The position numbers and the translations under genes are program-made. This document shows positions 16,690 through 54,350 of a stretch of 64,000 bases of DNA, one piece after another. The stretch comes from Psammoneis japonica. Lineage: Eukaryota. Below the pieces are notes generated by a model. It saw nothing but the letters and a program-made list of their open reading frames with translations, was not told the origin of the DNA and ran no database searches. Location: NCBI GenBank assembly GCA_008632985.1, contig QPGO01000091.1, positions 248,001 to 312,000 of the forward strand, written 5' to 3'. Each line of letters begins with the position of its first letter. The stretch's first letter is position 1.

Positions 16690-17388
16690 GTCCGATGTAG
16701 CGTGATCTTTTCGAGACCACAAAGAAGAGATTCGATCAAAGAAGTGTGAGCAAAGAGACGAAAAGGATGAATGAACATCAAAAGACCACACGAGTGCGAC
16801 CGACATTTCTCTCCACAAAACAAACAGACAACATGCACAAGACAGGGGATGATTTTTGCATCTACAACAAAGAGATGACAGCAATGGCACGCAACAGAGG
16901 AGGTGCATTGAACGAATGAACATCAAAGTGTGGATTGTGTCAATTCCATGTGTTTTGGTGTTTCTTGTCGATGCGAGAGAACGATGTTTCTCGACACAGC
17001 CCCCCACTCACAGCACACCCAAGACACAGAAAACTTTTCGTGACTGTGGTCAGTCGATGTCAGCAAAGGCAGTCATCAGATGAAGTGAAATGAGCGAACA
17101 AACATCCGAGTGTGGGTTTTGCCGCTCAGAAATGGCCAAGACAAAAGCAAAAAGACCCATCTTTCGATTTCTGCACAACCACAACGCCGTTTCTCGCCAA
17201 ACCAAGGCTCTCACCTAACAAGTCGACCTCCCAAAAGCAACATCCGTGTCTTCAATGAACGAAAACGATGAAGAATGGGTCAAACAAGGCCGAGTGTGGG
17301 TCGGCGCAGCGTCATCTCCAAAAAAACAACTTCACGTTCCGAAAAAAAGTCTCGCCGCGCTTAATCCCACGGATCGCGCGAAAAGCAA

Positions 17389-24202: not shown

Positions 24203-25420
24203 ACATCTTTCCAGTGACTCAGCTTTCCAACAACAACCCATTTGCAGTTGACAGTGTTGCCAAAGGAAGCTGAGCTGAAGCACCTTGATGGTGTCTTGCC
24301 ACCAGAGCATCTTTTGGCACAGCACTTGGCAAATCCATTCATGAGAAATTGAGAATCTGGATGATTGACAGTGTGGTTCTGTCAAATGCATTGTGCACCA
24401 AAATTGTTCTCACAATGTTGATGCCCAGCAAATCTTTCTCATCTCCTTCCACCATGATGTGTCCAGCTTTGCCTCTTTGCTGAGCTCCTTGATCACCTTG
24501 TTTGTTCCATCTTTGTCAAGGCTGGCAACAGCAGATGTCATTGGCATGTGAGAGATGAGGCATCTTTCCATTGTGGAAACTCATGCCAATTTCTGGTTGC
24601 CATTGGGGTCCTCAAATGCACAGAGCACCTTTGGCACCAACAAGACTTTAGATTGGTCTTGCCGAACCACAAAGCTCAACAATGCAAGCTTTCACTTTTG
24701 CTTCATCAGTCTTGTTGCTGAAATTTTGTTGACCAGCCACCACTTGTTCAACACTTTGCTGGCTTGTTTTCTTGGGGGATGTTCACATTTCAACAGAGCT
24801 TTGTTGTTGCTTGTGTCATCACTTCCTTTGGCCTGCTCACCAGCTGGCTTTTGCACCCTGATCCATTCACCCCCCTTGACACACTGACTCCACTTTGTGA
24901 CCCCCTCAAACTCACCCTCTGAGGTCCTTCCAGAGATTGAGTTGCAAGCCAGCACTGCCTCCTGTCTCTTTTGGCACATTTGGAAGAGCTTCCAGTTGCC
25001 CTGACTTTTCATCAACAGTTTGGTTGCTCTGACATTGTGACCAAGAGGCCAAACAATTCACCACTGGCAATGAACCTGTTTGGAGGGGGGAGAGATCAAA
25101 CTTCTTGGCTTGCAACATTGGCAACTCAACCCCATGATTGCCAGCGGGCATGACCCAAGAAGAAGTTTGCAAAAGGAGCACCTCTCTTTCACCTTTTTGG
25201 ACATTTTTGAAGCACAATTCTTCACAACTGAAATCACAAAGTTCTGCACTTCTTTGTCATCTTGTTCTTTGTGACTGTCAGAAAGTCCAACCCTTTGCAA
25301 CCCTTGGGAACACAAGCCATCAATCTCCAGAGCCACACCATCTTTCTAATCTGATTCAATGGCTTCTCTTAAACCGGAAAAAATTGGCAAAGTTTGCCTC
25401 CCAATCATGTGCAACACTGT
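22420..25420. repeat. Older, more diverged internal repeat unit of the A element
   Basis: Shared blocks recur, e.g. GGACATTTTTGAAGCACAA(C/T)TCTTCACAACTGAAATCACAAAG at about 12602, 21539 and 25199; AAATTGGCAAAGTTTGCCTCCCAATCATG at about 13296, 22240 and 25381; GCTGCAGCAGCCTGCTCAAAACATGGTGTGTG at about 10422, 13981, 19361 and 22925. Confidence 0.75.
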
Positions 25421-29019: not shown

Positions 29020-30853
29020 TGCTCGTCTCTCTTTCACATCCGTGAAATGTCTGTGATCGCTGCCTGTCATGTTCAATGTGCCTTCGCCGTGTGTCCGTCA
29101 CCGACACCGACCTTTTGCCATCTGTTTGTTTTAAATATGGTGGGAAACAACAGCCAAATCCAGGATCCAAAGCCGATGCGACAAGACTGATACAATCAAT
29201 TGGATCCCACCGACTTGAATGTGAAAATACTATGTCGAACCTCTGCTGTTGCGGGGGTCGATATGCCAACGCATGAGATGCGGATCACTCCTTGCCGAGA
29301 GTGCCAGCTGTAATTCAATTCAAAGCAAACGCTACTCGAGTATTCAAGAGCTTTGTACAAGAAGATATCGTGTTGCAGTATCGCTGACTGGTCCGTCGTT
29401 GAAAGGCCGCGCTGTAAAAGTTGCTCGGGTTGCGGGCGAGATGTTTGAAAATGTGGCTGGAAACTGCCGTCTTTGTGGGCGCGTGAGATTCCTCTAAAGT
29501 ACCTTTTATTGAGACATGATAGATCCACACGTATAAGTTGTTTTTGTGCTCAGCGTATGATGAAAAGGAAGCATCACAATGTTGTTTGGTTATTTTCCGA
29601 TTTCTTTGCTTCGATGACCACCCTTATTTGTGCGTTCGTCGATTTCACCACTTTCTTCGTCAAGAATTTGCCATGTCATTACATGCTGTTAAAAGATCAA
29701 ATTATAGCATGCCGCTGTGAAGCTTTTGAAAAGACCTTTGGCTGCACTATTGTGCTGAGGATGTTGATCTTGTTTCAATCAACCAACAAATTTGTCTGTT
29801 CCTGAAGGATCTGCATGAGCAAGCTTGTTGGGCAGCACTCATCTGCACCCAATGTTGTCCATTTGACACACACAGCACACACAAATGTGTGTCAGCAAAA
29901 GGTTGCCACTGGAGGGTCACATGACCAACTGGCGATGAGGCACAATGATCATTGCAGCCTTTTGTCAAGTCTTTTTAGCTGGGTCTTGCACTGCAAATGC
30001 AGTCAACAGCACATGGCTGGCCCATTCCCCTCAATCATTTCCATGGAACCAAACAGCTCTGAATTTTCATTTTTTGAGTTGTGCTGACAACAGGAGAAAA
30101 GAGTGTTTTGCATGCTCACACAGCAACAATGTTCTCCTTGAATGATTTTTTCAAGACCCAGGAATGTTTGATCATGCCAAAAGTTCTCCTCTCTTGAGAC
30201 ATGGACTGAGCATTTGGAAAAATGCAAATTTTGTCAACTGGAAAAGCTTGCTTGTTGTCTGGCAGCTGATCCAGAAAGTCTGCACACCAGTGGGTTGTGA
30301 AAAACTGCCAAGTGGTTGAGAGCTGTTGACATGAGTCCTCTGGAGAGAATGATCTGTGGGTGAAGGGGGGAGCACACCCAGAAAACAAAGTTTGGTGCAA
30401 GCTGAGCAGCTCAAAACAAATCTTTGATTTGTCCCTTCTTTCAGCCAGATGAACAGGAAGCATTGAGAGGGCTTGCAAATGGATTGCAAGGGACAACTCA
30501 AGCTTCAGCTTGGTTGCTTCTGGCTGTCAGTCAGTTTGACCACTGGGCACATCCATGCTGCTGCTTTGTCAGCACATCAATGAAACAAGCACTCTGAATT
30601 AAGGAGCATTCAGTGAAAAAAATCCTTCATTCTCAAATCTGTTCATCAGCTGCTTTGCTGGGTGGTGAGAAAGCTGAAAAAACCAGATTTTGCATGTGCC
30701 ATGGGCACTCCTGTCATGAGTCAGACACAGCCAAACATTGAGCTTTTGTGCACACACCAGCTGTGCCAAGTTTTATGTTGGAAATGTGCACCACCTGTTG
30801 CTCACAACTCCAATCTCAATGGCAGTTTCACAAATTCAGCTCTTTCCTGCTGT

Positions 30854-31096
30854 GCCAGTCTCATTTTGTTTGTGTCAAATGCCCAGCACTGAAAATCATG
30901 TCCAGCACTGTTTGAAGCTGTTTTGCTGGACTTTTTTGGCAGTTTTGGATGAAAGGCATGTCACACAACAATTGAGCCAGCCTCATTTTGTTTGTGTCAA
31001 ATGTTCAGCACTGAAAATCATGCCCAGCACTGTTTGAAGCTGTTTTGCCAGATTTTTTTGGCTGTTGCACAAAAGGCATGTCACGCGACAATTGAC
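30854..31096 (+). repeat. Two-copy tandem repeat, period 122 bp
   Basis: GCCAG(T/C)CTCATTTTGTTTGTGTCAAATG...CAGCACTGAAAATCATG.CCAGCACTGTTTGAAGCTGTTTTGC at 30854 and 30976. Confidence 0.85.
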
Positions 31097-31208
31097 AATG
31101 TCGCTGTGAGTGAAGGCAAACCCTCCTGCACAGCATGCACACAAGTTGGGGCACCCAGCCATGCACTCACTGAGAGTGATCCACTGGGGCAGAGGGCGGT
31201 GTCTCATC

Positions 31209-31587
31209 TGCACTGTGCTCGAAGAACGAGTGTGAACGAAAGCAGAATCAAGTGTGAAAAGTGAAAATTGTGAGATTTGTTTCTGCTCAATCATTTTGGG
31301 TTTCTCTGAATGGGTTCTCAATGGCCCAAAGCATTTGCACTGTTCCTGCAGACAAGAGGCCTTTCGGAGAATGAGATCGTGACAACAGATTGTCCGGATG
31401 CGATTGACATTGACACACAAGATGTCAACATCATCGCACGATCGCATTTGCCATTTTCGACATCCGATCAATTCTGTGTGATTGATCTGTCCTTCGTACA
31501 AACCCACAATTGATGCATGATTGGAGCACAAATTCATTTAATGTCTTTATGTGTGCATGTGTGATGTGCACAACAACGCACATTGCA
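31209..31587 (-). mobile_element. Solo LTR (379 bp) of the Ty3/Gypsy family found at 44193-47300
   Basis: Homologous end to end with 44193-44575; TG...CA ends with a 9/10 terminal inverted repeat (TGCAATGTGC / TGCACTGTGC); 4-bp target-site duplication CATC at 31205-31208 and 31588-31591. Confidence 0.85.
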
Positions 31588-32720
31588 CATCTGTGGTCGA
31601 AGCAGGAGACAACGCTGTGTTCAATGACGAGAGTTTCTCTCGCCAGGAGGTGGAGGGCACCTTCTTTGATCAGGTGCCATCGGCAGGGGCCATTGTGGAG
31701 GGTGTTTGTTGCATTCAAAGACACACCAGCCATGCACAAGGCAGTGTTGGTGTTGGCACTTCGCTGGTGCACCTCACGCAAGGTTGTTGCGCAAGCAGAT
31801 GCATGCCACGCCACACGCAAAACATCGGCGGATGAAACCAAAGAAAGTGACAAGATGAATGACAATGAAAATGCCATTCACATTGACAGAGCGAAGGTGT
31901 TTACGTTGAAAACACTCGCCGCCGGTGTCGACAATGACGTGCTGAAGGAGTTGTGTTGTTTCACTGTGTGGTTCATGGGCCCCGCTTGCTTGCAGCAAAA
32001 GCACAGCTCATGACCTGAGAGTGAGCCACTGTCTGCATGGGAATTGCCCACTCACTGAGACTCACAAACAACAAATGTGTTAAAAAGCCTGGCTGCAAAC
32101 AGCGTGCACCGGCACCCAAACACTTCTTTTTTGTCGCACACATGTTTCTCTGCAAGCAGGGATGAGTGGCACACAAGCAGCTGCCACAATGGTTGCCAGC
32201 ACCAGCACTGGCATCTCCCCATGCTTCACCGTGTTGTTGTCCGTGGGAGATGGAAAGCACCACACCCCTTTCTGCAGTGCTTGACCTTGGATGCACAATC
32301 TCATTGTGGGAGGACGAAGAAGCGTCATGCATGTGCCGCAAGTAACGATGACCGTTAAGTGACCTTGATTTGATGCCATACAAGTCGTGAGAAGTGATTC
32401 AAAAATTGATTCACTTCAGTCATTATAAATGGATTAGCTGGCTTCGACCGTTGCATGCGTGACGTCGATTATTTGATATTTTTTTGGCGGGAGATTCGAT
32501 ATTTGAAATTTTCTGGTGTTCGCGAGAACTCCGATACGAGTTTTGATTGGCTGCCGTCTGGTTTCCGCCACCATTTTTCCTTTCTTCGTGATGACGGTCA
32601 CTTTTCTCCCGCTCCCGTTTAAAAAGTTCTCTGCTTCCCATGCCCATTTGTTCCAATACAAAGCTCTTGTGCGACTCCGTTACTCCATGAATCTCAGTGT
32701 CGCCTCTTACCAGTTCAAAA

Positions 32721-35723: not shown

Positions 35724-36149
35724 CTTAAATCTGATGTATTCAGCATGCTGTTTTTTGGGGCATCTCTTCTCTTTTCTCTTTTGCTCCTGTCATTCCGATG
35801 ACGGGCGGACCTCTCTGCGGACAGCAAGCCACAGCGTATTGTAGCCCCGCCCCCTGAATCGATGCACACCGATTCAGACCTCTCGTGCTTTTTCACTGCC
35901 GAGGTTGAATGGGAGTGGCGGCATGAATCTTATGTACAGCGGACACAGAGGATGTTCCCCCCTGAAGGCCAACAAAGAGCCAAGTTCAACCCTCTGGGTG
36001 TTTTCGTTGACTTTGAAATGCTGGAACACTCGGGGGTCATGCTCTGCAGTTTTTGCCCCCCGGACCCATTTCAACACACACCCACATGTCTGCAGAATGC
36101 ATTAAAATGCCAACAGTCCAAATCAAATCATGTTTAGCATCTCAAAATT

Positions 36150-38840
36150 GTTCCACCATTTCAGTTCCTCGCCAATCAAAGAAATGAGGCACAACACCAG
36201 TTGTTTTGAGAGAATTGAGTGCACTTCAATGATCACACCCAAAGCTGACACCTCATCTTCCTAAAAAAACACCAGAGCCCCCCCACACACACACACAGAA
36301 TGCACAGACTCTCAGCTTTCCATTGATGTGTCACATGTGGGGCAACTGTGCACACACAAAATTTCAACGCATCACAAATGCTCAAGTGCACGGTGTGAAA
36401 GTGGACATGCAAACATTGGGCATTCATGGTGGGAAAAGTTGTGCAGCTTCTGCGTGTGTGTGTTTCTGCATCTTTTTTGCATGCAAAATCATTGTCGTCA
36501 CCTGGATTTCTCTTGCTTCACCCAGAAATGCTTCTCAACAACAAAACAGGATCGGAAGTTTTTACGCCTCATTTGTGCTTTCTGAGTTGCGGCAAACAAA
36601 ACAGTTGTTGTTGGAGAAGGAGATGAGCCAACCAAACCCCAGAAAAACAGCATGAAGTGCTTCAAGCATCTTAGAAGACAAGGATGCATTGGAGATTGTT
36701 GTTGCTTCTTAGCTCAATGAAGAAGAGAGGCAGCATCTCAGATTGACATGGCAAGTGACACCGTCATTGTGCAGTGCATTTTGCTCATTTCATTTTGGGC
36801 TGATCTGCTGAACAGAGTGGCAATTGGTCCTCAATCTTGGGCACTGCTTGCTTTGTGGACATTGTTGACACTGATGACAATGGAATGTTGGCTGTTGTTG
36901 ATGATGATGATTGCAGCGAAATGCCGACATGGTCAACAACAAACACGAACGATGCAACAACAACAAAAAATGGTTTGGAGGCAATGATGGACAATCCCAG
37001 CAGCATCATGGAGTGTGGATGGCAGCATGTCAAGCAGAGATTGCCTGTGCATCAAAACATTGGTGTGGAAATGCAACTCTGCTCATGCATTTTTGTGGCA
37101 TTGCTCAGTCTGCATGAACACTGTGGATCTCAAACAAATGCAAATGAACACAATTGGTGCAATCCAACATCAATCAACTCCATCTTGGCTTTGGCTCTCA
37201 ACAATGACAAAGGAGTGTGGCATGTGGGAAGAAAGCACAGCAGCAGCAAAGTAAACTGGCAGCAAATGAAACAGCAAGACTCATGAATCAGCATCTCTGC
37301 AACATGGGGGAGCAGTTTGCATTGTTTCTGTTCTCAGCACTGGTTTGGTGGAGTCAACATTTAATTTGCAGCAGGAAAAATGGCCACTCCACAAACACAA
37401 CACTGACCACACCAAGCCAGAAAGGAAACATGCAAAGGATCCCCGAGTGCTAAAATGCCGCCATTCAAGATCTTTGAGTTTGGGCTGCTTGGCTTGCTGA
37501 TGGACTTGGCACTGGCAGCAACATGCCCAGGGAACAGAATTGATTGTTGGACAGAATGGAAATTTTGGCCAAAAACCAATTCAACTCCAGGGACACGCTC
37601 TTCCAGAGACAGAAACCAAAACCTGCAAGCAGATTCTTCAGGGTCTCAGTGGAAAAGGGTGCTGTGTTCTTGCTTGGTGCCAACAATTGATGACAAAAGA
37701 GATGGGAGATCCTCATGCATGCAGCAACACTGTCTTTGACCAATCAACCAGCAACAAAAACCCAGTGTGAAATGTGCACTGGTCCTTGCTCTCAGAAGTG
37801 GCAGCACTGGCAATGGAGACACCAAGCTGTGTTGGAACCACAGATTCTGTCAAAAGTCCAAAATGAAATTGGCATTGCAACAAACCACTCTTTCACCTGT
37901 TTGTCTTTGTCAAACAAACTTTTTCCCAGTGTGCAGCAGAGACAAAAGAACACTGGCAAAGAGCAGCAACTGAAATGTCCTGATGTGCCAAAAAGAACCA
38001 TCAGCTCCTGGAAAAGAAGCAATCAAAGACCTTGGAGCAAGAGGAGGTGCCAAGGGAAACTCCTTGGTGAAACTGCAACAAAGCAGAGAAAGAAGGCGAA
38101 ACAAGTGTCAGTTTCCTTTCCAGCTTTGGTGCAATGCCATCAAGCAGATTTGGTTGACAATTCAAAATCAACGCAGTGCAAGCCAGTCCATGATGTAAAA
38201 GAGAGCAAAGACTGGGTCAGACAAAAGTGGTGGCTTGCCCTCTGCCAGTGGTGGGATGCAAAAAATGCAGGCAAGCATGAGGGCACCACTGCCTGGGGAT
38301 GCACCATGCCAAGCACAGCGTCAATGGCAGATCTCAAATTGTTGACAGCAGATCAAAATGTGGCGCATTCATCTGCAAGGACTGTGCAAACAGTGGCGAC
38401 AGAGATGGTCACCAACAGATCATCAGAAGGGGCTGCCAAGCCAGCAGCAATGGCATTGTCATCTGATGTGAGGGCAGGTGCAATGCCCTTGTGCTGCAAC
38501 ACTGGCACGCAAGACCAGGATGCAGCTGGGGCCAACTGAGAGGAGGGCCAGAAGGCTGACCACCAGAAAGAAGGGGCAGGATTGAGCCCAGAAAAAAGCC
38601 CACAACCAAATGTGGATGGCAAAACTTGTGCCACCAGATTTGGTGCTGGAGGCTCTGTGACAGCGGGAACTGCAGCAGATGCCCTCAGCAACCACTGCAA
38701 GTTGCAGAGGACATTGGTGAGAAGATCGTCAGGATGACAAGAATCAGAAAAAGCAAGCAAAACTTGCTCTCAGCTCAGCAACGTGCAATGCAAGAACGTT
38801 GAAGAGAAAAAGAAGTGAGCTTGCAGCGGTTTGTTCTGAT
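36150..38840. repeat. Hypermutated block, probably a decayed plus-strand gene or TE
   Basis: TpA and CpG depleted; long Tyr-free ORFs (e.g. 37715-38539, 274 aa); no recognisable motif. Confidence 0.6.
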
Positions 38841-39334: not shown

Positions 39335-41841
39335 TTATCGTCTATTCTTTCCTCGGACCTCTTTTCTCAAGTCTTCCTTGTACTTGCCATACAAGTCGTC
39401 AAAGGTAGTCAGCTCTCCATCGGCGACTTCTACCTTGATTCGTCCCTCGGACACGGTCCACATTTCCTTGGCGCTCTTGGACATGAAGCTTTGGTGGTGC
39501 GAAACCATGACCACGGCCCCTTGAAAGTTTTCTACGGCAGTCGCCAAAGATTCCAAGCTGTCGCGGTCCAAGTGGTTCGTCGGTTCGTCCAAAATCAGCA
39601 CGTGCGGCGCGTTGTACATGACAGTAGCAAAGGCAAGACGAGCCTTTTGCCCACCACTCAACGTTCCGATAAGTTGTAGGGCCAGAGATCCCACCAATCC
39701 AAACTGTCCCAAAAACTGCCGAGCTTCTTGTTCGTTCTTGGCATGGTGTTGCTGCAAAAAGTACTCGACCGGAGTGCATCCCAAGTAGTCGCCGAGTTGT
39801 TCGATATGATGCTGAGCGATATGGGCTACCTTGAGGTTGGGGTGGCGATGATAGTCACCGCCATCCACATCGAGTTCTCCACAGAGCAACTTCAACAAAG
39901 TAGATTTGCCAACACCATTCCTCCCTGTAATAGCAATCCGACCTCCCTCGGAAACGTTCAGCGTCATGTGTTCTAGCAGCCACGGCCCTTTCTTGTCGTA
40001 CCGAAAGCGACAATCCTCCATGGTAATATACGGCATATTGGCGCCTCCTTTGAGCGGTGCCGCAGCGGGAAACTTGAAATTGAGCAATTGTCGGTCTTCG
40101 CCAAACGCATGGGTTTCGTTGCTGACAAAAAACGATTGAAAGCCGGCGGCATTGGTATAGTTGCCAAAAACGTGGCCGGCTCGATTGGACCCACCCGTCT
40201 TGGTTTTGCCTTCGGCCAGTAACTTAAACTTTTGTCCATTCTCGGAAAACAAACCAATGCGGCCCAGTTTCTTTTGTCGTTCGGCCGCTTGTTGTTGCTT
40301 GTTGTCGTCGCGGTGCTTGCTATTGGCCATACTCCGTTGCTTGGCAATAAAGTCCTTGGCCTTTTTTTCTTGACGGGCCACGGCATCGGCCTTCCTACAA
40401 TTGCGGGCCCAAGATTGTTCTTGCATTTGTCGAAACGACGTGTAGTTACCAACGTGGTACTTGAGTTGTTGCTTGGAGGGTTCAAAATATATGATGTCTG
40501 TGCAAACCGCATCCAAAAAGTGACCGTCGTGCGACACTACCACTGCCGTCATCTTGTGATCGACCAAGTACTGTTCCAAAAAGAGAATGGCCGACAAGTC
40601 CAAGTGATTGGTAGGTTCATCGAGCAACAAGACATCGGGTTCGGCATAGAGAGCTCGAGCCAACGCCAATCGCATGCGCCATCCTCCACTCAACACGTTT
40701 CCAGGCGTCTCCAGCATGGATTCTTGGAATTGCAATCCCTTGAGAATGGTCTTGGCTTTTTTGTCCAGTTGGTTCCAGCCCATCTTGTTGTTGTTGTCTT
40801 TATCTGAGGATTCTTGTAGCTGTTGTTCCAAGGCTTCCAATTCGTCATAGATTTCGGAAAGTCGTTCGCGGCAGATTCGAGTTGTTCGGGTTCCACGGAA
40901 TCGTCTTCCAACATCGCTTCGAGTTCGGATTGTTCTTGTAGCAATGTTTCTTGTTTGGCCTTCGTGACTTTATTGTTTACTTGAAAACAGTTGACAACAC
41001 ATTGAGCCGTTCCCAACACTTCTTGTTCGACCATGTCCACCGTCAAGTGCAGTGGCCACCCCGGAATGTTGCCCGAGGCCATTCTCCTCAACAAAGTAGT
41101 TTTGCCGACGCCGTTCGGGCCCATCAATCCATATCGATGACTCTGCGAGAGTGCCAAGTGTGTTTCTTGTAGCAACGTCTTGCCCGCAAAACTCAGTGTC
41201 AATTGCTGAACCACCACGTCTTTTCCCTTGTGGGAAGCAAGCCCTCGATTGACGCCTCGTCCGCCATGGCCACGGCCGCCCCAGACACGGCCCTCGGCTT
41301 GCGCGTCGCGCCAGGCACTGGAATAATCGTCGAGTTGGTCCAATTCGGTTGCCGTCGACTGTTGGATCCTTTGGACCACGTCGTGAATATCATTGCTTTC
41401 TGTATTCTTGGATGGTTGTTTCGTTTTCTTTTGGCGTTGCCGTTTCTTTTGTAGTCGCTTGGCTTTGCGAAGTTCCTTATTGTGACTCTTGGCAGTTGCG
41501 GGTTCCGTAGAACTAGTTTGTGATGCTTTCGTGTCATTGTCGCCCGTGGAAGACGAGGACGCTGCGTCGTCGTCGCCTTGATGGTGCAAGGGCAGTTTTG
41601 GGGGTGTGGGCTTTGGAGTATTTGTAGAAGTGTGTTGCACAAGACTCGCCAGGTCTCTCACCAAGGCCTCGGCCGCACTGGCATTGTCGTTTAGAAACGG
41701 CTGGACGGCTTCGGCAAGTGCTTCTAGGTCATTGTAGGCGTCTTCATCCGACAAAATTTGCACCAAATAATCGAGCATCGTCTCGTCATTCTCTGTCATT
41801 ATGGGTTTCAAGGCCTCTTGAATAACGGCCGTGTCCATCAT
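39335..41841 (-). CDS. ABCF3: ABC-F family ATPase (ABCF3/GCN20-like); one apparent frameshift at about 40866
   Basis: Two ABC cassettes: GPNGVGKTT...LSGGWRMRLALARAL...LLLDEPTNHLD and GRNGVGKST...LSGGQKARLAFA...LILDEPTNHLD; no transmembrane domain; helical N-terminal domain. Confidence 0.85.
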
Positions 41842-41866
41842 TTTCTTGATTGAATGGGTGTTAGTA

Positions 41867-41899
41867 GTTGTTGTTGTTGTGGTGGTGGTGGTGGTGGTG
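41867..41899. repeat. Compound (GTT)n(GGT)n microsatellite just upstream of the ABC-F start
   Basis: gttgttgttgttgtggtggtggtggtggtggtg. Confidence 0.9.
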
Positions 41900-42059
41900 A
41901 TTATGATCAAGGTGTTGCGACAACGGCACACAAACAGCCACAGCGCGAGGAAGGTGTTCCCTCACACAAAACACCACCCAGTCGTGCGACACCGCTCTTT
42001 AAGGATCATTAGGGAACATTCCCTCGGAGTCAGTACTGCTTTCAGGTAGACTTCTACTT

Positions 42060-44190
42060 GTCGTGCGGTTCTGCTTTCAATCGTGTGTGTGATCTGCATT
42101 GTTCGCCAGAATGACTGACAGACGACGGCAGCCTGGGCTGCTGCTCTTGTTGATTGACTGAGCTCTCTCTCTCTCTCTCTGTCTGCACCATCCCTCTACT
42201 GCTGATACTTGCATGGTGGTTGGCTGTTGCTGGATGCTGGCCACTGCTGCCCCCAAGCCAAGTGAACATGTGTGGCTCTGGATGGTGATTGCTGCTGAGC
42301 TGCTTCTTGCTTCACCCTGGATGCTGGCCACTGTTGTCCCCAAGCCAAGTGAGCATGTGGCTCTTGGTGGTGATTGCTGTTGCTGCATCTTGCTTTGTCC
42401 ATGGCACCACCACCTGCTGGCTGAGGAGTCTGCCCTGCTGAGGGTGCTTCTTGCTCTTCTTTTCTTGGGGCTTGCTGCAATGCACAACTCAGCTGCCAAA
42501 GCTTCATTTGCTGTGTGTGGCTGAGGCCACTTGCCAGCACTGACCATGCCCCATGGTGCACTGTGCAGTGATTGCAAGCTGGTGTGACCTTATCCAGCAT
42601 TGCCCAAAGCACCCCCAAAGCCCACCACATGGAGCCCTGCAGTGGCTGCTTCTCATTGAGCACTGAGAAAACCCCTCTCTGACAGTTTCCTTGCCTGCAA
42701 GGCTTTGATCACTCTCACAGCTGCTGATTGGGGTGAGTGCCACTCACATTTGGGGCCTGGTTGGAGGGCATTGCTTTCCTCAGCTGGCTGGGCTGCCAGC
42801 AGAACAAAGTGGATCCAAAGTTCTTGGCTCTCTTTTGTGCCCAGCTTGCACTCACAGCAGGGCCTTGTTGTTGCTCCTGGTGCCACAATGATGGCCAGTG
42901 GCTCTCTGCGTTGGTGTTTTTGCCACAAAGTGAAATGTCAGGAGAAGCAGCCGAAAGGCTGTCCATCATGCTTTGGCAGTTGTCAAAGCTCACACGACAT
43001 TTCAATCTGTCGCTGCCTCTGCAGCATTCAACGTGGCGAGCAATTGACACAACTGGGTGCTTGGATGTTGCTCAGCACATGAATTTGCAGAGACTGCGCT
43101 GCACAACAAAAGGAACCCAAGGCATCTAATTTGCTTTGGATTTTCCATTGTCTTTTGATTGCAAGGAAATTGCATCTTGTTGGCATGGTGACTGTTTGCT
43201 CCAAGAATTCCCATTTGTGGGCCTGTTCCAGCCCCAGGTGCAATGTTTTTTGACATTCGCGTGGTCCCACACAAATTTCAGCACTGGCTGAACAAGCAGC
43301 AGATTCTGGAGCTTGCACTTTTTGCCTTTCCGCAATGAAAAAACATGTCCGTCATGGAACAATCCTGTCTTCAGCATGCATGCTCTGGTCACTTGACAGT
43401 GCACACTGGCGTGGGTGTGTCACAATGAGAATTTGGCAGCTTGCACATGCAACAACCACCCACCACACACAACAACAACATCAGTTGCAGAGCAGCAACA
43501 GCAACATTCCAAATCATCATGTCCATTGCCGGTGTTGCTTTTTCTTGTTTCTTTTTACCTTTGTTTGCCATTGTTGGACAAAGAAAGTCTGTTCTCCAGA
43601 GGATTTCTGTTCTTTTTGGCAGATTGTCATTTTCTGTTGTTTTGCGTGTTTCTGGTTCATTCTCCATGCCGCGTTGCATTTGTTGTTTCAGCATCAGTGT
43701 TGGTTGATTGCGGTTTGATTGTGTCCAGTCTCTTTCAATTGTGAAAAGTGGAACTGCCTTGCAAGGCTGCCATTGGCTTGACGGTGACAATTTGTCATTG
43801 CAACTGAATTTGGAGCACTCAGCAGATCCAGTTTGGGCAGCTTGTGATTTGGTTGCTGGTGGTTTTGTGATGACTGTTGACTGGGCTCTTGCTGCTGCTT
43901 GTTGGCAGATGCTCTCCACTTGTGTTCTGTCTTCTGAGGTGCTGTTCTGGAGTGGACATCCAGTCAGTGCCAGGAAGGCACTCGGAGCTCTGTGTGTGTG
44001 CAAGCTTCGGCTGGTTGGCTCACCCAGTTGGGGCAATTCCCAGGCCAGAGCAACCATCTGCAGCTCTGACACCATCAATGCTGCACTCTGACTGTGCTCC
44101 ATGCCCTTGTTCTTGAGCACTCCAACTGACTCAATCAGATTCTTGACCAGCAGCTGGCCCCGACACAGAAGGTTCATCATTGAGTTTGCA
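42060..44190. repeat. Hypermutated unclassified repeat; includes (CT)n at about 42163-42180 and an 88-bp-period duplication at 42231-42386
   Basis: TpA/CpG depletion; GGATGCTGGCCACTG.TG.CCCCAAGCCAAGTGA.CATGTG occurs twice. Confidence 0.65.
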
Positions 44191-44192
44191 CG

Positions 44193-44575
44193 TGCATTGT
44201 GCTCAAAGAACAAGCATGAACAAAAGCAATGTAAAGAGCAAAAAGTGAAAATCACAAGATTGGATTCTGCTCAAGAATCATTTTGGATTTCTCTAAACTG
44301 GCTCTCAACAGCCCAAAGCTTCTGCGCTGCTTCTGCAGAACAAAAGGCCTTTCGGAGAATGCAGCAATGACAACAGATTGTCCGGATGTGATTGCCATTG
44401 ACACTTAAGATGTTGACATCGTCAAGCAATTGCATTTGCAATTTTCAGCATCTGATCAATTCTGTGTGATTGATCTGTGCTTTGCACAAACTCATGAGCT
44501 GACACAAGATTGAAATGTGATGACATTTGAGTGTGTGGATGTGCGTGCAAAATGCACATGACAACGCACATTGCA
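44193..44575 (-). mobile_element. 3' LTR of a Ty3/Gypsy retrotransposon
   Basis: Begins TGCAATGTGCG immediately after a purine-rich tract (GGAGATGGAGATGGA, plus-strand 44576-44590) downstream of integrase; homologous to the solo LTR at 31209-31587. Confidence 0.8.
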
Positions 44576-47300
44576 TCCATCTCCATCTCCACAATTGCAC
44601 ACCAGAGTCATTTGTTGAACGGTGTTGTGCAACAAATGTTGACAGTGTCAATGACATCACCACATTTGACCTGCACTGTGCCATCAGCCAGCATGTGCTG
44701 CCATTGTTGTCACATGCGGCCCAACACAGGGCTGTTCTAATTTTGGGAGTCTCTTTTGTACAGTGTCTTTTCTCCTGCCCCATGCATGTGCGGAGCATGT
44801 CAAGCATTCTCACAAGCATTGTTTTAATTTGTGATTTCTTGTTTTTGTTTCTGGACAAAGTTCCAACCAGCAATGTGCTGGACACTGAAAATCATGTCTC
44901 TGTTGAAGAAGCCTGGTTGTTCTGGTGTGGCTTGCACAGCAGCATGACACACAGAATGCACTGCAAACGCCACTGCTGACAGCTGACAACATGCCAGAGA
45001 GTGGATCATCTGCATCCAGGGGTGCATTTTGCAGGTCCAATGTGCACAGCACACATTGCCTGGCACTTGATGCAGCATGTGTTCAATGATTGTGCTTGCT
45101 TGTGGATTTTGTGCAGTCATGAGCTCACATTTGGTGCCACAGTCCTCTTGAACCATGTTTCTGAGTTGGTGTCCGACAAACTCATCACCACAGTCAACAA
45201 TGGCCATGGACATCTGCTCAACCACATTCTTTCTAATGGCCCAGCTGCAGTTGTGGATTCCTCATTTGGAGTTTCCAAAACTTCAAACCATCCAGTTGCT
45301 GGATCAACCATTGTCAAACATTTTAGGACCAAGGGTTTCTTCTTCCCCTTGCAATGCATCTTGTGTGGTTCAATGAGATCCACACATGGCCATTCCCATG
45401 GCACCAATTCTGTGCACTTGGGGGGCAAATGTCCACATTTCTTCTGTTTCTTCTTGAGCTGTTGGCGTGTCTCACATTTTGACACAGTTGTTGTGAGATT
45501 GTTTCTTCTGTTCCATTTGTGCCAGGGTGAAGAAGGCACATGTGGCACCAATCTGTCACTGCCTTTTACAGTGTCTTTGGTGCAATGACTTTGTTCTCAT
45601 GACATGTGAGCAACCGGTCTTGCTCACCTCCACAGAAAGTGTTTGGATGACATGTTGCATTCTTTGACAATTTAGAGAGAATGTCTTTGTCCTGTCACTG
45701 TTCAGTGTCAAGAACTTTGCATGATGATGGAAAGACATTATCACAGGATTTTGGTGGGACCTTTTCAGTCAATTCTTCTGTGCTGAGATTTTCCATGGGC
45801 TCCATTTTTCTCACAGTGAGTTGGCTGATCACATTTGCAACAATGTTGGCCTTGCCCTTGAGGCAAATTGTTTTGTGACTGCATTTCTTCTGTCACTGGA
45901 CACCAATGCATGACTCTGTCTGTTGTGAAGTTCTTGTGTGTGAGATTTTTGTGATCTGTGCACACACTCATCTGTTGGCCAAACAGCACATTTCAGAACT
46001 CTTTCAGTGTGTTTCCACAACAGACAGCAATTGTTTTTCTGCTGCAGCACAATGCGTCTGTGCTCCATTCAGCTTGCGGCTGCAGAAAGCAACAGGCCAG
46101 TTGTTCTGCACAACAACCACCCCCAATTGAGAATTGCTCACACCAGCACATGTCTCAAAGGGTTTGTTGAAATTTGGGTTTGATGACAGCACAACTTTTG
46201 AAATTGTGCGCTCTATGTTGTGGAAGGCTTTTTGTTCCATTTTGGTCCATTGCCACTTCACCTTGGATGAGGCATGTGATTGTCAAGGCCACATGTCTCA
46301 ACAGCAGTTGATCACCCCCACAAAGCTTTGCAATTCCTTGCAAGTTCTGGGAGGAGCTGCAATCATGCAAATTGCCTCCACTTTCTTTGATGTTGGTCTG
46401 GCACCTTTGTGGGCAACATGAAAGCCCAGACAGCCCACCTTCGATGTTGGGCAGAGGGAAATGGAGTGCACATTGATCTCTTGCCCAGTTCATGAAAGTC
46501 AGACAGGAACCAAACTTGACCATTTTTCTTTGGTTGAATGAAGGCAAGAGCCACCCATTTGAAACAATTTGTTTTTCTTAAGACTTTCAACTTGCACAGT
46601 CTTTCAACTTCCTTTCAAGTGGTCACATCCAAGGCTTGTGGTGCAGGAAATGGCTTTGTGTGACATGGACTTGTGCCCAACCTCAACTTGAGATCCACAG
46701 GTTTCCCGGTCCACTCACCCAGAGAACCATTGAAAAGGTCTTCAAATCTTTTTAGGAGGAAATTCAGCTGCTTCTGCTCCTCTGGAGTTAGATGAGTTGC
46801 CGCTGCAGCCACATTGTTGGGGGTGGCAGCATGACAGTCTGAGCCAAGCATCCAACTGACCCTGTCATTAAGACCAGTCACGGCATGAGATTCCTCAACA
46901 TGACCAGCAATCAACTTGAAAACATCAGCATTGAAGAGTGCATCAACATTTTTCACAGGTGCAGTTGCATCCTCTGTGCACATGAAATGCACACGACAGT
47001 GCATGTTGCAACTGTCTCAGGCCCTGCTCCATTCCATGACCCCCACTCTTTGATTGAGAATGTCCCAGTCATTTGACCTGCATTGACAGCTTCAAGCACC
47101 ACTTTGACAGACATGGCTGACGACACGAGGGTCCAACAATCACCCAGCAAACCCTTTGTTGCTGCACTCTTTGCACTTTCAAGTTCACTGGTGTGGGCCA
47201 CAGTTCTTTCACAGGATGGCATCAATGCATCCCTTGCTGAACTGTTGCTCATTGGACTTGATGTGATGAACCTGTCTCCTGGCATGCTTTTTTGAAACAA
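44576..47300 (-). mobile_element. Degenerate Ty3/Gypsy pol (RT N-terminus, RT thumb, RNase H, integrase, GPY/F); RT catalytic core deleted; matching 5' LTR not found
   Basis: LLKRFEDLFNGSLGEW...FIQPKKNGQVWFLSDFHEL..FPLPNI; FVGVINCC*DMWP; QLGVVVVQNNWPVAFCSRKLNGAQ..EKQLLSVVE; VCTDHKNL; GHLPPK..PWEWPCVDLIEPH..LTMVDPATGWFE..WLSRCPWP; NPQASTIIEH; KLEQPCVGPH. Domain order RT-RH-INT is Gypsy. Confidence 0.92.
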
Positions 47301-48193
47301 TGAAACACAGCAGAAACTTGAAAAGATCATTGTGCTTCAGCTGCAACAACGTTGACAATGTGGAAGCCACAGCACTCAGAAAGTTGCTGAAAATGGCACA
47401 CAACACCCAAAAGATGCCCCCCCCCCCCCAACTCAAATGGATCTTCCTCCAGCATCATTGTGGTCACCTGGGGTCTCCAAGACAATGACTCTTTGGTGCA
47501 CCTTGGTCTGTTGGGGAGCAAAATTTCTGCTGGCGGGGCTTTGGCTCTTTTGAGTGCAGTTAAAAAAGAGCTGTGCCATTGAGCAGCTGGAAATGCAGCT
47601 GCATTGTCTTGATGAAAATGCAGTCTCATTGACCAACCAGATCAGGTTCTGCTGTCACTTAAACCAGGTGTGGGATGTCAGCGCATTGGAGACATGTCCC
47701 TGCTGTTTTCCTTGTTGCCCCTCATCTCAGCCAAGAAACAAACCAATGAAAATTCAGGTTTGCTTTTTGGGATGATTCGAGAAAAGCCAGATCCCGCAGT
47801 CACAGCCCAAGGCCCGGTGCAAACTAAGAAGCAACGACACGGCAAAATCTGAGCTGAGCTGAGCTGAGCTGCAGACCCGTTTAGAAAACTGCTCAGGCGG
47901 GAGGGCGATAGAAGCATCGATGACAGCAACGTTTGGATCACAGAGTAAAGTGTCTCTCTGTAAATAGTGCAATTCGCTTTTGTAAATAAGAAAAATTTGT
48001 TAATCTAGATGACATCACTTTGGCATGCGTGCATGAGGGGGTTGCCAATGCGGTGGATAAGCTTCGAACACCTCGCTACGACAAATCCACAAAAGTTTCA
48101 TGCCGTCAATCAAGCAAGAAGGTAGCGGTAAGTGTGCTATCTATTTAGCAAGACAATCATTTGGGGGTCCTTGAAAGAGTTAACAACATATAC

Positions 48194-49264
48194 TCATGGT
48201 GAAAAGTATACTTCGGGTCGTTCCTTTTGGAGCACGGCAACATTCTCGGGAGACAGGTCACTCCGAAACCATTTCAACTTTTTGGCGTTTCGCACAAACT
48301 CCATAATGCATTCCTCTGGCACACTCCTGGCACAGCGTTGACCAAACAACTTGTAGGTTGGACTCTTGAAGCTGACTCGTTCCAAATTGGAACTGCAATG
48401 CTCCAAGACGCCCTCTTTGAAAATGGAGTTTTCTGGCGAGTACATGCAGGCATGGTCAATGTACAGCTCTTGTAGCATGGAGCAGTGTCGTAGGTCTTGT
48501 CCCGAATACGAAAATCCACCCGTGGCGCCATTCCAATGAAACACACGAAGGCTTTCGAAGTGACGCATTGAAAAGTCTGCGGCAGCCGTGTGACGGACGT
48601 TCATGTAGCTCATATCGACTTCTCGGAGATTGGTCAGCATTATGGATAAAATCTTGGGGACGCAATTCTGAACCGTCGTGTTCCAGTGATCAGAAGGAAA
48701 GGAGAGATCCAAACTGGTGACGGAATCAAGTCCACCGTCGTCATTGGACGTATGGAGGAGGGTCTTGAGGCGCTTATCACCCATGGTGACTTTTCCTAGA
48801 TGTTCGTGCCCCTTCACTTTCAACCGATGGCGAGGAGACGCGAATACGTCTCGAATATTCCACTCAATGATACGATAGAGCACGTCTGTAACTCTGGATT
48901 TGGTTGTGCATACAATTTCGCACGTTCGAGTCTGGGGCAGAGCTGGGTTTCGACAATCATCTAAACACCTTCTTGAAACTAGAGCAAAGCTACCGTGAAG
49001 GAAATGAGGATCCAGAAACTTGAGGATAGAGATTCGACAATCTTCAGGTAGTACGCTCAGAGGACATTCGTTTCGAAAGGATGACTCGGGTCTTGTCACG
49101 ACATTATTCTTCTTGCTAGCAAGCCGCTTTTTCTTGGTTTTTCTCCCGGCGTCTCTCGCGTCAAGTCTTGCCCTCTTTCTAACAATCTTTGGTATGTAAA
49201 TAGTATCAGGAATACTGTCAAGGTCAACCTGAAGCCTATGCTCTAGTGGTGCAAGGCGGATCAT
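48194..49264 (-). CDS. F-box / LRR-like (RNI-like) protein
   Basis: F-box-like PLSVLPEDCRISILKFLDP...FALVSRR; LRR-like repeats VTSLDLS, LREVDMS, LQELYID, LERVSFK; ends LKWFRSDLSPENVAVLQKERPEV. Confidence 0.75.
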   Translation of the reverse strand: MIRLAPLEHRLQVDLDSIPDTIYIPKIVRKRARLDARDAGRKTKKKRLASKKNNVVTRPESSFRNECPLSVLPEDCRISILKFLDPHFLHGSFALVSRRCLDDCRNPALPQTRTCEIVCTTKSRVTDVLYRIIEWNIRDVFASPRHRLKVKGHEHLGKVTMGDKRLKTLLHTSNDDGGLDSVTSLDLSFPSDHWNTTVQNCVPKILSIMLTNLREVDMSYMNVRHTAAADFSMRHFESLRVFHWNGATGGFSYSGQDLRHCSMLQELYIDHACMYSPENSIFKEGVLEHCSSNLERVSFKSPTYKLFGQRCARSVPEECIMEFVRNAKKLKWFRSDLSPENVAVLQKERPEVYFSP

Positions 49265-52544: not shown

Positions 52545-54350
52545 CTATCTTATTAATGTTACGCATACGTCCGCGACGTTCGTACCTGTAGGTCCCGTCT
52601 TGATGAGTGGACAATGGGTGTCATTGCCATTCTGGTTTTGAAAGTAGTTGTATGCATCATGATTCTGCAGTGCATCCTCCGCAGTAAAGGATGACGAGTC
52701 CAAGCGGTCAATTGTACTTGCGTCGACAACAGCGCCAGCGGCATCTGTAGGCCCGTCTGTTCCGTCTGTACCAGCGCTGGCAACTACAACATTCTTCAAG
52801 TTAAGATTCTTTAATCTCACTGCAGCAGCCAACGCAAGTTCTTGGTTCCGTCCACCCTTGCCGTTGCTATTTGTCAATGTGACTGTAGTTTCGCCGCCGC
52901 CAATCAGTGCCGCGGGTAGTTTTGCCAAGGCGAAATTGCTGGAAAGCGAATTGGATTCTTGTTGTTTCGCCAAATGCTGAGCCATGGCTACGTACATTCC
53001 AGCAGCCTCTTTCGCCTCCCCTTCTATTTGTGTTCCCAAGACCACCGGATTGTAACCCCGTCGTTGAGCTTCCGTAGCAGCCGCATGGACAGCCAGCCCA
53101 TTGTTTCCAACCAAGACAGTTTCGCATTTTCCCTTTGTGGCAAACACGGGGTGGTCACTCGTTGGTGTGTCGTCAAGCTTACCGTCGAGTCCCATCTTGA
53201 GCACGCCAAGAGCGGTATCTGGTAGACAGAAATCGTTTTCTGACTTGTCCAATTTGTATTTTTCCACAAGCGTCCATGCGTCCTGCCATGTACTGGAATC
53301 AGGCACGGTCGGTCCGCTCGCAATCAAATCCAACGGGTCCCCGATAACATCACTCAGAACCAGTGTCAGGACGGTGGACGGATATGCCTTGGCTGCCAAC
53401 CAACCACCCTTTCCATCCTCCAATCGCTTCCGAATGACATTGATTTCTTGTATTGTCATGCCAGACGCCAACAAACAAGAATTGGTTTGTTGCAAATCGT
53501 CAATTGACAACAAGTTTGATTTTGGATAACAAAACAAGGACGAACCACCTCCACTTATACAACAAACCAACAAGGTACGATCCGATGCCGCAGAGGTTAC
53601 CGAGTCCATAATTAACTCTGCCGCCTTTACAGAACGCTCGTCTGGAATGGGATGAGATGCTTCAAAAACGTCAACGCCAAAGCTCTTCAAGTAGTCCTTT
53701 TCAGCTGTTGCATCGTCACAAAAACGAAATGTGAGCATCTCAAGATTAACCCTATTCAATCAAATATATCTCCCCCCTATTATCCTCACCTTGTGATGCA
53801 TGAGTATCTTTCACCACCACTATACCCTTCATTTTCGCATCCGGCATGGCTTGCTTGATTCGTTCTGCAGCTGCCGTGGCCATGGCCGATGAAGCCTTGC
53901 CAAACGATATCAAAAGCACATTGTCGTAATCTTTTGCAAGGTATATCCGTGAATCATCAGCTCGCAGCTCTCCCTCTTGAGGAGCTTCCAAGTGCGATGC
54001 TACTGCCGTCTGTGGATCAACAGCCTGAATCGCTTCTCGAATCATGGCTAACGCATCCACTGTCATTTCGTCCGTCACGGATTGTTTGGCAGAAAACAAT
54101 CGTCTCTGAAGAGTAAATCTGTCGTATCGTCGTCTCGACAAACCCCATTGCTCATGTCGGTGTTGTGTCAGTGGAATCGTTCCAAACGAATCGACTGAAG
54201 TGTGAAACGACGACACCAGAGCCGCCGTTGCCAATACTTTGGAACAGGGAAACCGCACGACGCCACCTCTTCTTTTTCTGGGTTTGATATGGAATACCGA
54301 AAGCTATACGTATTACTAGATGGCGGCTTCATTTTCTTCATCATGAACAT
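52545..54350 (-). CDS. GLYCTK: Glycerate kinase, MOFRL/TtuD (GLYCTK-like) family, probable organelle-targeting N-terminus; intron 53789-53705; start uncertain (apparent frameshift near 54280)
   Basis: SFGKASSAMA, EASHPIPD, CISGGGSSL, LSDVIGDPLDLIASGPT, GGETTV, GGRNQELAL, GTDGTDGPTDAAG, TGPTGTNVAD. Confidence 0.88.

Follow-up and report, generated by a model that had tools for sequence, protein, structure and literature searches.

Loss of TpA and CpG in a degenerate Ty3/Gypsy pol and neighbouring blocks of a diatom contig: probable TpA-directed hypermutation with separable CpG decay

Background

Why should a retrotransposon pol region that lies among ordinary diatom genes be almost devoid of TpA and CpG dinucleotides, and in which direction has its sequence changed? 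The question is raised by a degenerate Ty3/Gypsy pol in contig QPGO01000091.1 of Psammoneis japonica (NCBI GenBank assembly GCA_008632985.1), which is located within the 64,000-nucleotide (nt) stretch analyzed here (positions 248,001 to 312,000 of the forward strand). This whole stretch is referred to below as the window, and coordinates are counted from its first letter. The original prediction, made from the letters of this DNA, was that conserved tyrosine codons (TAY) of the pol had become TGY (Cys) or CAY (His), that arginine codons (CGN) had become TGN or CAN, that TpA and CpG are the ancestral states and that the polarity of classical repeat-induced point mutation (RIP), CpA>TpA, is excluded. 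The data reported here document this direction of change in integrated chromosomal DNA, on both strands and within blocks that extend well beyond the pol. The pattern probably results from DNA-level, TpA-directed A:T>G:C hypermutation of silenced repeat domains together with a separable decay of CpG (methyl-cytosine).

Blocks depleted in TpA and CpG

Over the whole window, the observed/expected (o/e) ratios are 0.29 for TpA, 0.60 for CpG, 1.50 for TG and 1.53 for CA. Rather than being spread evenly, the anomaly resolves in 500 bp windows into sharply bounded blocks, at least seven, that alternate with host genes of normal composition (Table 1). Seven blocks, summing to 24,000 nt, contain 76 TA (o/e 0.04), 132 CG (0.10), 2742 TG (1.86) and 2867 CA (1.89), as compared with 955 TA (0.55), 1423 CG (1.01), 1811 TG and 1882 CA in 25,200 nt of gene-bearing DNA with a normal composition. 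The GC content of the blocks is the same (0.47). After equal-length scaling, the blocks are short of ~2057 TA+CG and have a surplus of ~2092 TG+CA, a balance that counts in favor of the mechanism proposed below.

The block that holds the pol has a TpA o/e of ~0.04-0.08 and a CpG o/e of ~0.1. In 1 kb windows across this block, TA has an o/e of 0.03-0.15, TG and CA range from 1.5 to 2.3, and positions 42001-47500 contain 53 CG. The pol DNA itself (2352 nt) has only 13 TA and 14 CG, with 277 TG and 277 CA, whereas the pol ORFs (open reading frames) of intact relatives have 53-103 TA per kb. Stop codons are correspondingly skewed, with 21 TAA, 9 TAG and 266 TGA in 42210-47500, versus 79, 76 and 191, respectively, in a normal stretch of equal length. 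As TAA and TAG are almost gone, there are long spurious ORFs in all six frames of 42210-47500, and 71 ORFs of at least 60 amino acids (aa) overlap 42000-48500.

Direction of change in a duplicated flank

A 6.8 kb duplication gives the direction of change with no recourse to an outgroup or to pol motifs. The two copies, 8429-15264 and 17391-24208, are 99.2% identical over 6806 columns, and 54 of the 56 substitutions are transitions. The first 520 bp of copy 1 have a normal composition and serve as a proxy for the ancestral state; they adjoin the ELO gene region, and the 1 kb window 8001-9000 has o/e values of 0.58 for TA and 1.31 for CG. The corresponding flank of copy 2 is positioned between hypermutated DNA. 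The 32 TA of the copy 1 flank read in copy 2 as 13 TA, 11 TG and 8 CA (59% converted), and its 32 CG as 27 CG, 4 TG and 1 CA (16% converted). At all 23 listed substitutions, copy 1 has TA or CG where copy 2 has TG or CA, and there are no reverse changes, which shows that TpA and CpG are ancestral, as originally proposed. By conversions, copy 2 has 24 changes and copy 1 has none.

In RIP, C changes to T mainly at CpA, which creates TpA, and the process is triggered by duplication, with both copies mutated. Given that the flank changed from TA and CG to TG and CA, classical RIP, which makes TpA, is excluded, as the original prediction had argued from the pol. As only the block-embedded copy changed, targeting by position or chromatin state is favored over the homology-based targeting of RIP. 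The flank was changed after the chromosomal duplication, and RNA or cDNA editing is therefore disfavored as the sole cause. The 19 events at flank TA sites form 15 runs where 10.3 are expected, with changes on both strands interleaved at single sites, and runs tests within the blocks (z -1.7 to +2.3, as in normal DNA) revealed no strand-coordinated TG or CA tracts. In older copy pairs (74-90% identity), the most frequent double difference pairs CA with TG (29/112, 19/93, 4/11, 6/19 and 9/38), as expected if palindromic TA and CG sites were resolved independently on either strand. The process thus acts on integrated chromosomal DNA, on both strands, and includes DNA in a flank that is not part of a transposon.

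Tyrosine and arginine codons of the degenerate pol

A tblastn search of the window with a 1004 aa relative (P0003) gave four minus-strand high-scoring segment pairs (HSPs) in differing frames, together spanning 46968-44617, which requires at least three frameshifts. Intact metagenome pol ORFs of 600-1100 aa (L002, L003, L005 and L007) are collinear over the same span, and the domain order, reverse transcriptase (RT), RNase H and then integrase, is that of a Ty3/Gypsy pol. Of 17 ORF pieces from the pol region, only one matched a Pfam family (RT_RNaseH_2, E=1.1e-13, 46004-46282, minus strand), and the RVT and rve models gave no match at E<=0.01 on the broken pol ORFs. There are 14 in-frame stops inside the HSPs (11 TGA, 2 TAA and 1 TAG), and part of the RT is missing; residues 242-359 of P0003, 106-233 of P0026, 380-497 of P0068 and 332-459 of L002 have no counterpart at the gap. 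With at least three frameshifts, 14 in-frame stops and an RT gap of ~118-128 aa, this pol copy is dead, with no intact coding capacity. In a search for long terminal repeats (LTRs), the sole direct repeat of at least 40 nt in 41500-48500 was a tandem with an 87 bp spacing, and no LTR pair was apparent by self-BLAST. The LTRs could have been erased by age and by independent TA and CG conversion.

To assemble an outgroup, the RT_RNaseH_2 ORF was used as a HMMER query against 1.84 billion representative proteins. This search found 2084 relatives, and the best 150 of these, together with 11 intact metagenome pol ORFs (161 in total), were placed on the window by tblastn. All of the peptide strings quoted in the original prediction are present on the minus strand where it had placed them (Table 1). 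At the 23 columns in which at least 50% of the relatives have Tyr, the window retains none, and has instead 13 Cys, 5 Phe, 2 His, 1 Asn, 1 Gln and 1 Val, whereas 263 of the 436 columns for the remaining residues (Arg excluded) are conserved in the window (Fisher p=1.4e-9). A looser cut (at least 30% of relatives, 34 columns) gives 18 Cys, 4 His, 5 Phe, 7 others and again no Tyr, and alignment with a single intact relative, L002, gives 14 Cys, 4 His, 4 Phe, 1 Tyr and 5 others at 28 Tyr positions. Replacement of Tyr by a random mix of residues, which would have contradicted the prediction, is not what is seen; the bias is far beyond chance, with the Phe at 5 of the 23 columns unexplained.

Arginine has fared similarly. 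Arg is kept at 8 of 35 Arg-majority columns, and 20 of the 27 replacements are residues with TGN or CAN codons (7 Gln, 6 Cys, 5 His and 2 stops), as predicted for CGN. Residues whose codons are end products of such changes are fully retained, Trp (TGG) at 12 of 12 and His (CAY) at 10 of 10 columns. Ile is kept at 9 of 40 columns (12 Val, 6 Met and 4 Thr among the replacements) and Thr at 13 of 32 (10 to Ala), losses expected from ATA codons and from T|A across codon boundaries. Over 587 aligned codons, Tyr makes up 0.0% in the window and 3.5% in the relatives, Cys 6.0% and 2.0%, and Arg 2.9% and 6.4%, respectively. In place of reverting TG and CA in silico, we classified the changed conserved columns by the single step required. 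Among the 55 strongly conserved columns that have changed, 26 require exactly one TA or CG step (10 TA>TG, 4 TA>CA, 7 CG>TG and 5 CG>CA), another 13 a transition of a different kind, and the remaining 16 are not explained by a single transition. The TA/CG process therefore dominates the changes in the pol, with ordinary decay admixed.

The prediction also recognized that active relatives might naturally have Cys or His at these positions. Such relatives do exist, 16 of the 161, but they look hypermutated rather than active: Tyr accounts for <1% of their residues, and of 89 Tyr-majority columns 70 are occupied by Cys or His. They include P0002, P0006, P0014, P0017, P0111 and 11 more, some of which keep Arg and others of which have lost it, and they look like gene calls on further hypermutated copies in other assemblies or metagenomes. 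Arg is retained, indicating TA-only change, at 10 of 12 columns in P0002, 4 of 4 in P0014 and 10 of 12 in P0111. The Cys:His ratio at Tyr columns is 18:4 in the window pol (looser cut) and 44:26 in the other hypermutated relatives.

TpA loss, CpG loss and sequence context

The loss of TA is everywhere at least as extensive as the loss of CG, and spills ~0.4-2 kb beyond the CpG-poor cores. There are zones in which TA is lost and CG is normal (Table 1), but none of the 128 windows of 500 bp is depleted in CG only, and every CG-poor block is also TA-poor. The TA-only zone at 15501-17500, for example, has 0-4 TA and 19-34 CG per 500 bp. At the right edge of the pol block, the CpG core ends before the TA depletion does, and TA loss overruns the core by ~370 bp (47530-47900); the four TAs at 47561-47882 are all in YTAR contexts (Y, pyrimidine; R, purine), namely TTAA, TTAA, CTAA and TTAG. 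The opposite separation occurs in the metagenome relatives L004, L015 and L016, which have CG o/e values of 0.05-0.10 with TA at ~0.6, consistent with CG-only decay. TA loss and CG loss are thus separable, and are two processes.

Context dependence was measured as survival, the TA or CG remaining in blocks relative to normal DNA. The resistant TA contexts are CTAA/TTAG (0.39), TTAA (0.41) and CTAG (0.23), and survival is lower in ATAT (0), ATAC/GTAT (0.007), CTAC/GTAG (0.007), GTAC (0.015), ATAA/TTAT (0.05) and GTAA/TTAC (0.14). TA is therefore removed well if at least one strand reads T-A-pyrimidine, and less well if that strand has T at -2. This rule fits the excess of Cys over His in the pol, as the sense strand of every Tyr codon reads TAY. 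Three of four His columns are preceded by a purine, numbers too small to settle whether context alone accounts for the Cys excess. For CG, flanking A or T favors loss, with a survival of 0.025 for TCGA and 0.21 for CCGG; TCG is the most depleted NCG context (0.05, versus 0.14 for GCG), and the loss is 86-95% across all NCG contexts. In bacteria, the adenosine deaminase TadA has a natural substrate loop that reads U-A-C-G, and early TadA-derived editors preferred YAC, a preference that resembles VTAY (V, not T).

Support from sequencing reads

Reads from one public run (X1) contain 74% of the sampled words of the stretch, and k-mer contigs from this run match 375, 432 and 312 nt of TA-free block with no differences; two other runs, X2 and X3, contain almost none of the stretch. 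The summed contig depth across 44170-46990 is 1000-6100, compared with ~60 in the single-copy flanks, and related contigs have 419 transition and 85 transversion variant places. One contig with a single-copy depth (69) covers 42829-44051 and differs from the window at 9 positions in 1223 nt. All nine are transitions, in both directions, and six are in TG, CA or CG dinucleotides; among the nine is one adjacent pair, at which the window has CA and the contig TG. These differences could reflect a second haplotype, a strain difference or recent mutation and activity.

A probable mechanism and its precedent

The observed pattern, with its direction, both-strand action, context rule and separable components, is probably best accounted for by TpA-directed hypermutation plus CpG decay. 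The dead Ty3/Gypsy copy would then be part of one of several silenced repeat domains in the diatom nuclear genome that are rewritten, at the level of chromosomal DNA, by two context-specific transition processes. The first would be a TpA-directed A:T>G:C change that converts TA to TG or CA, depending on the strand struck, prefers 5'-(not T)-T-A-Y-3', is inefficient at YTAR and has removed ~93-96% of the TA; it would be the faster and further-reaching of the two. The second would be a C>T change at CpG, giving TG or CA, most simply by 5-methylcytosine deamination on methylated transposons, and would have removed ~90% of the CG in the cores. Together they would convert Tyr to Cys or His, and Arg to Cys, Trp, stop, His or Gln, and wipe out TAA and TAG while leaving the GC content unchanged.

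One close precedent was found, in the chlorarachniophyte Bigelowiella natans, described in a preprint (Mettrop et al., bioRxiv 10.64898/2026.01.13.699255). In mutation-accumulation lines, two integrated viral regions, nucleocytoplasmic large DNA virus (NCLDV) and virophage DNA, mutate ~1000-fold faster than the remainder of the genome, almost exclusively by A>G/T>C and all at TpA, with the activity limited to some of the lines. Coding sequences with low TpA are enriched for reverse transcriptase and DDE domains, and an ADAT2-like DNA adenine deaminase is suggested as a defense. In that text there is no mention of diatoms, and 'CpG' occurs 0 times. By analogy, the first process in the window may be an enzymatic deamination of adenine to hypoxanthine, read as G, as a chromatin-domain genome defense; the targeting signal and the nature of the enzyme are similarly inferred, and the second process is presumably methylation-dependent.

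The likeness to B. natans is in the change itself, A>G/T>C at TpA giving TpG or CpA by strand, with TpA falling as CpA and TpG rise, and in its confinement to foreign or repeat regions of chromosomal DNA, with other DNA normal. There are also differences. B. natans is a rhizarian and the present host a diatom (Stramenopila), and the targets here are an LTR retrotransposon and surrounding repeat blocks rather than integrated viruses. The change is near saturation in the window (TA o/e ~0.04), versus 0.45 in the NCLDV region of B. natans, and is accompanied by ~90% loss of CpG (CG o/e 0.10), whereas B. natans has the TpA change only; the TA-only zones show that such a component is also present in the window. 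A wider context rule is apparent here (VTAY sensitive, YTAR resistant), and the evidence here is comparative whereas a de novo rate was measured in B. natans. The window would thus be a second case of TpA-directed hypermutation, plus ordinary CpG decay; the observation is confirmed and the interpretation supported. Four features go beyond the original prediction: the separability of TA and CG loss, the spread of TA loss out of the element into non-repeat flank, the roughly 4:1 excess of Cys over His and the resistance of TA in YTAR contexts.

Several results weigh against this interpretation. Run X1 is possibly from the same sample as the assembly, and so rules out an assembly slip but is not an independent confirmation. 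None of 17 related metagenome loci is TA-depleted (TA o/e 0.5-1.18); these were gathered with the Tyr-poor relative P0002 as the query, did not include P0002's own contig and served as intact outgroups. The ratio of CG to TA conversion in the flank (16% versus 59%) under-predicts the 90% loss of CG in the cores, so the two processes are not simply running in parallel. Between old copies, concordant TG/CA states outnumber discordant states by 235 to 29, which allows for much mutation before the copies separated. The mass balance between lost TA+CG and gained TG+CA presumes that the elements and blocks once had a host-like dinucleotide content. Ordinary decay is mixed in, as the Phe at 5 of the 23 Tyr columns is outside the TA rule and 13 of 39 single-transition changes are outside TA or CG. 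The substitution pattern of methyl-CpG decay (CG>TG/CA) is present in the window, but the enzyme, any base modification and the methylation state are not readable from sequence.

Alternative explanations

A single dual-specificity TadA/ADAT2-type DNA deaminase, converting A to I at T-A and C to U at (T)C-G in one defense system, is the alternative that survives best, although we consider it rather unlikely. Both target bases would follow a 5' T, all CG-poor blocks are TA-poor with no CG-only zone, and TCG is the most depleted CpG context. Amphioxus ADAT2 deaminates both A and C in DNA and prefers 5'-TCG-3' for C, but its adenine context is GAA, not TA. This precedent keeps a one-enzyme model alive, by analogy, but does not favor it. 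Arguing against one enzyme are the TA-only zones with normal CG, the unequal conversion of TA and CG in the flank, the TA-only change in P0002, P0014 and P0111 and the CG-only change in L004, L015 and L016. In addition, the preference for T at -1 of CG is weak, as all NCG contexts are heavily depleted, and the B. natans process, as described, occurs without C>T.

The mutated base could instead be thymine, if a 5-hydroxymethyluracil (5hmU)-like modification at TpA in silenced DNA mispaired with G to give T>C. As T>C at T-A on one strand is indistinguishable from A>G on the other, all of the counts fit this explanation equally well. In dinoflagellates, 5hmU is preferentially located at TpA; we know of no 5hmU-like thymine modification in diatoms. 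The authors of the B. natans preprint favor adenine deamination, and we give thymine modification only a small chance of being correct.

Editing of RNA or cDNA before integration, by ADAR/ADAT-like A>I and APOBEC-like C>U activities, with the edited copies then inserted, is very unlikely. In its favor, the read depth over the pol indicates a family with many copies, old copies share many TG/CA states, and ADAR has a 5' U preference, as noted in the Discussion of the B. natans preprint (bioRxiv 10.64898/2026.01.13.699255). However, the non-element flank of copy 2 was mutated after the chromosomal duplication, which contradicts editing as the sole cause, there is no strand asymmetry (TG and CA are equal in number in the pol, and the strands interleave), and TA loss extends into DNA with a single-copy depth at 42000-44170 and 46991-47900. 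A preference for CpG is also not known as a mark of APOBEC activity.

Error-prone patch repair, in which T:G mismatches from 5-methylcytosine deamination recruit mismatch repair and a Pol-eta-like polymerase that causes A>G at WA (W, A or T), would explain why TA and CG are lost together in the cores, and WA>WG is the known signature of Pol eta. It is nevertheless highly improbable, as AA is not depleted (o/e 1.20 in the blocks and 1.18 in normal DNA), transitions make up almost all of the change, which is restricted to TpA, the TA-only zones have no CG loss and TpA hypermutation in B. natans is described without C>T. Least probable of all is that there was no directed mutation: the polarity is opposite to that of RIP, the frameshifts, stops and RT gap exclude an active element under selection against TA and CG, and a base-calling artifact, for which one could cite that long reads can miscall modified bases and that six of the nine X1 contig differences are in TG, CA or CG, is contradicted by X1 contigs that match TA-free stretches exactly, by contig differences in both directions and by the same Tyr to Cys/His pattern in 16 of 161 public relatives.

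Relationship to other systems and significance

Hypermutation at TpA, as favored here, resembles ascomycete RIP in its dense, both-strand chromosomal transitions, permanent inactivation of repeats, dinucleotide context and leakage into flanks. It differs in that TpA is destroyed (TA o/e 0.04 and CA o/e 1.89 in the blocks) and in that only the block-embedded copy is mutated. Many diatoms are described as encoding DNMT4, which is related to RID and has no known function. The CG half of the pattern is like the decay of methylated CpG in transposons, with CG>TG/CA confined to transposon cores, and CG-only decay occurs in L004, L015 and L016, but such decay does not cover the TA half, which was lost faster and over a wider span. 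In animals, retroelements are also hypermutated in a preferred context by the host deaminases APOBEC and ADAR; these act on cDNA or RNA, with strand asymmetry and within the element, whereas here both strands and a non-element flank were struck after integration.

Until now, targeted A:T>G:C hypermutation at TpA was documented for a single organism, by one 2026 preprint, and no enzyme is known for it. A full-text literature search, with most subscription journals outside its coverage, did not turn up any account of TpA loss in diatom transposons. Near saturation on ordinary retrotransposons in a distant lineage suggests that the process is widespread in marine protists, and the sharper motif (VTAY sensitive, YTAR resistant) provides a target for testing candidate deaminases. 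The window also documents action on integrated DNA by position rather than homology, in combination with CpG decay. In practical terms, hypermutated blocks defeat transposon annotation by Pfam and BLAST, as illustrated by the single match among 17 pol ORF pieces, and spurious six-frame ORFs can contaminate gene sets; 16 of 161 public pol-related 'proteins' look like such products.

A broader proposal, possible but on balance doubtful, is that diatoms have a chromatin-domain defense that deaminates adenine at 5'-VTAY-3', perhaps with the same TadA/ADAT2-like enzyme hitting (T)CpG, and that spreads from silenced repeats into flanks, irreversibly erasing transposons into TA- and CG-free deserts. 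If this were true then, with the chlorarachniophyte case, A-to-I hypermutation of DNA would be an ancient form of immunity across the SAR (Stramenopila, Alveolata and Rhizaria) supergroup, equivalent in function to fungal RIP but opposite to it in chemistry.

Features of the window, host genes and minor observations

Table 1. Coordinates of the blocks, zones and pol features in the 64,000-nt window
Feature	Position	Strand	Remarks
TpA-depleted hypermutated block holding pol	42210-47900 (5.7 kb)		last sensitive-context TA on left 42206; first sensitive TA on right 47909
CpG-depleted core of pol block	42130-47530		last left CG 42126, next 42909; CG back from 47534
Degenerate Ty3/Gypsy pol	44617-46968	-	RT fragment 46968-46456; RNase H ~46282-46004; integrase ~45470-44617
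Junction of RT internal gap (~118-128 aa absent relative to intact relatives)	46456-46459	-	HSPs abut at 46456/46459 or 46429
INCC*DMWP	46286-46312	-	Tyr columns 46306 and 46303 = TGC TGT (Tyr in 54% and 80% of relatives); 46300 Arg to TGA, class CG>TG
AFCSRKL	46070-46090	-	Tyr column 46084 = TGC
VCTDHKNLTH	45936-45965	-	Tyr columns 45962 = TGC, 45938 = CAC
Integrase stretch	45201-45440	-	KCGHLPP 45420-45440 (45437 TGT); EPH 45363-45371 (45365 CAC); SRCPWP 45201-45218 (45212 TGT)
GCLG	46424-46435	-	string located
QPC/GPH	44714-44734	-	strings located
Duplication flank, copy 1	8429-8950		normal composition, proxy for ancestral state; 32 TA + 32 CG
Duplication flank, copy 2	17391-17912		between hypermutated DNA; 19/32 TA, 5/32 CG converted
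TA-/CG-poor blocks (at least 7)	1-1500, 9501-15000, 18501-25500, 26001-27000, 30001-31000, 36001-38500, ~42200-47500		500 bp windows
Block, copy 1 of duplication, TA- and CG-free	9501-15000		composition windows
TA-/CG-poor blocks, copy 2 of duplication and DNA after copy 2	18501-27000		composition windows
TA-/CG-poor block	36001-38500		500 bp windows
TA-only zones, CG normal	1501-2500, 9001-9500, 15501-17500, 18001-18500, 27001-27500, 31001-32000		500 bp windows

The window is, from its gene content, diatom nuclear DNA, which bears out the diatom host assumed in the original prediction. The top named relatives of the glycerate kinase ORF (52545-53759, minus strand) are from Seminavis, Nitzschia, Fragilariopsis, Skeletonema and Cylindrotheca, with 56-63% identity. 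Other host genes recognized by Pfam in DNA of normal composition encode an ELO elongase, a protein kinase, an ABC-F protein, an NSUN2-like methyltransferase, an ARM/HEAT protein and a leucyl-tRNA synthetase (LeuRS). Pfam was applied to 102 of the 151 window ORFs of at least 110 aa, a set that excludes copy 2 duplicates and overlapping antisense ORFs; matches were obtained only in regions of normal composition, with none in hypermutated blocks.

The two copies of the 6.8 kb duplication begin 8962 bp apart and, as the 2.1 kb that follows each copy (15265-17390 and 24209-26350) is unlike, this is not a simple tandem repeat. A 25 bp sequence (10126-10150) is absent from copy 2, which has 7 bp extra after 12818. 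The TA-only zone at 15501-17500 carries two long, Ser-rich minus-strand ORFs, of 298 and 430 aa, neither of which matches a Pfam family, and the zone may be either a further element or a host gene into which the damage has spread. An isolated TA-poor patch, 4501-5000, is located in normal DNA away from the blocks, with 3 TA per 500 bp versus 36 and 27 in its neighbors, a normal CG count (27) and ORFs with no Pfam match, and may be a small old insertion. Among the metagenome relatives, L004, L015 and L016, and also L010 and L011, have CpG o/e values of 0.05-0.27 with TpA at 0.5-0.63, and L004 retains an open 613 aa ORF.

Two hypermutated blocks share a ~300 bp segment (31209-31506 and 44193-44494, 79% identity). 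The 44193-44494 copy is just downstream of the integrase end, where the read depth rises to thousands, and the segment may derive from a terminus of that family. To the left of the pol block, a run of ACC/GTT codons at 41822-41961 encodes poly-Thr in the N-terminus of the ABC-F protein and poly-Val in another frame. A single N is present at 63859, and near the right edge of the pol block there is a C12 homopolymer at 47419-47430 and a (GAGCT)4 repeat at 47850-47870.

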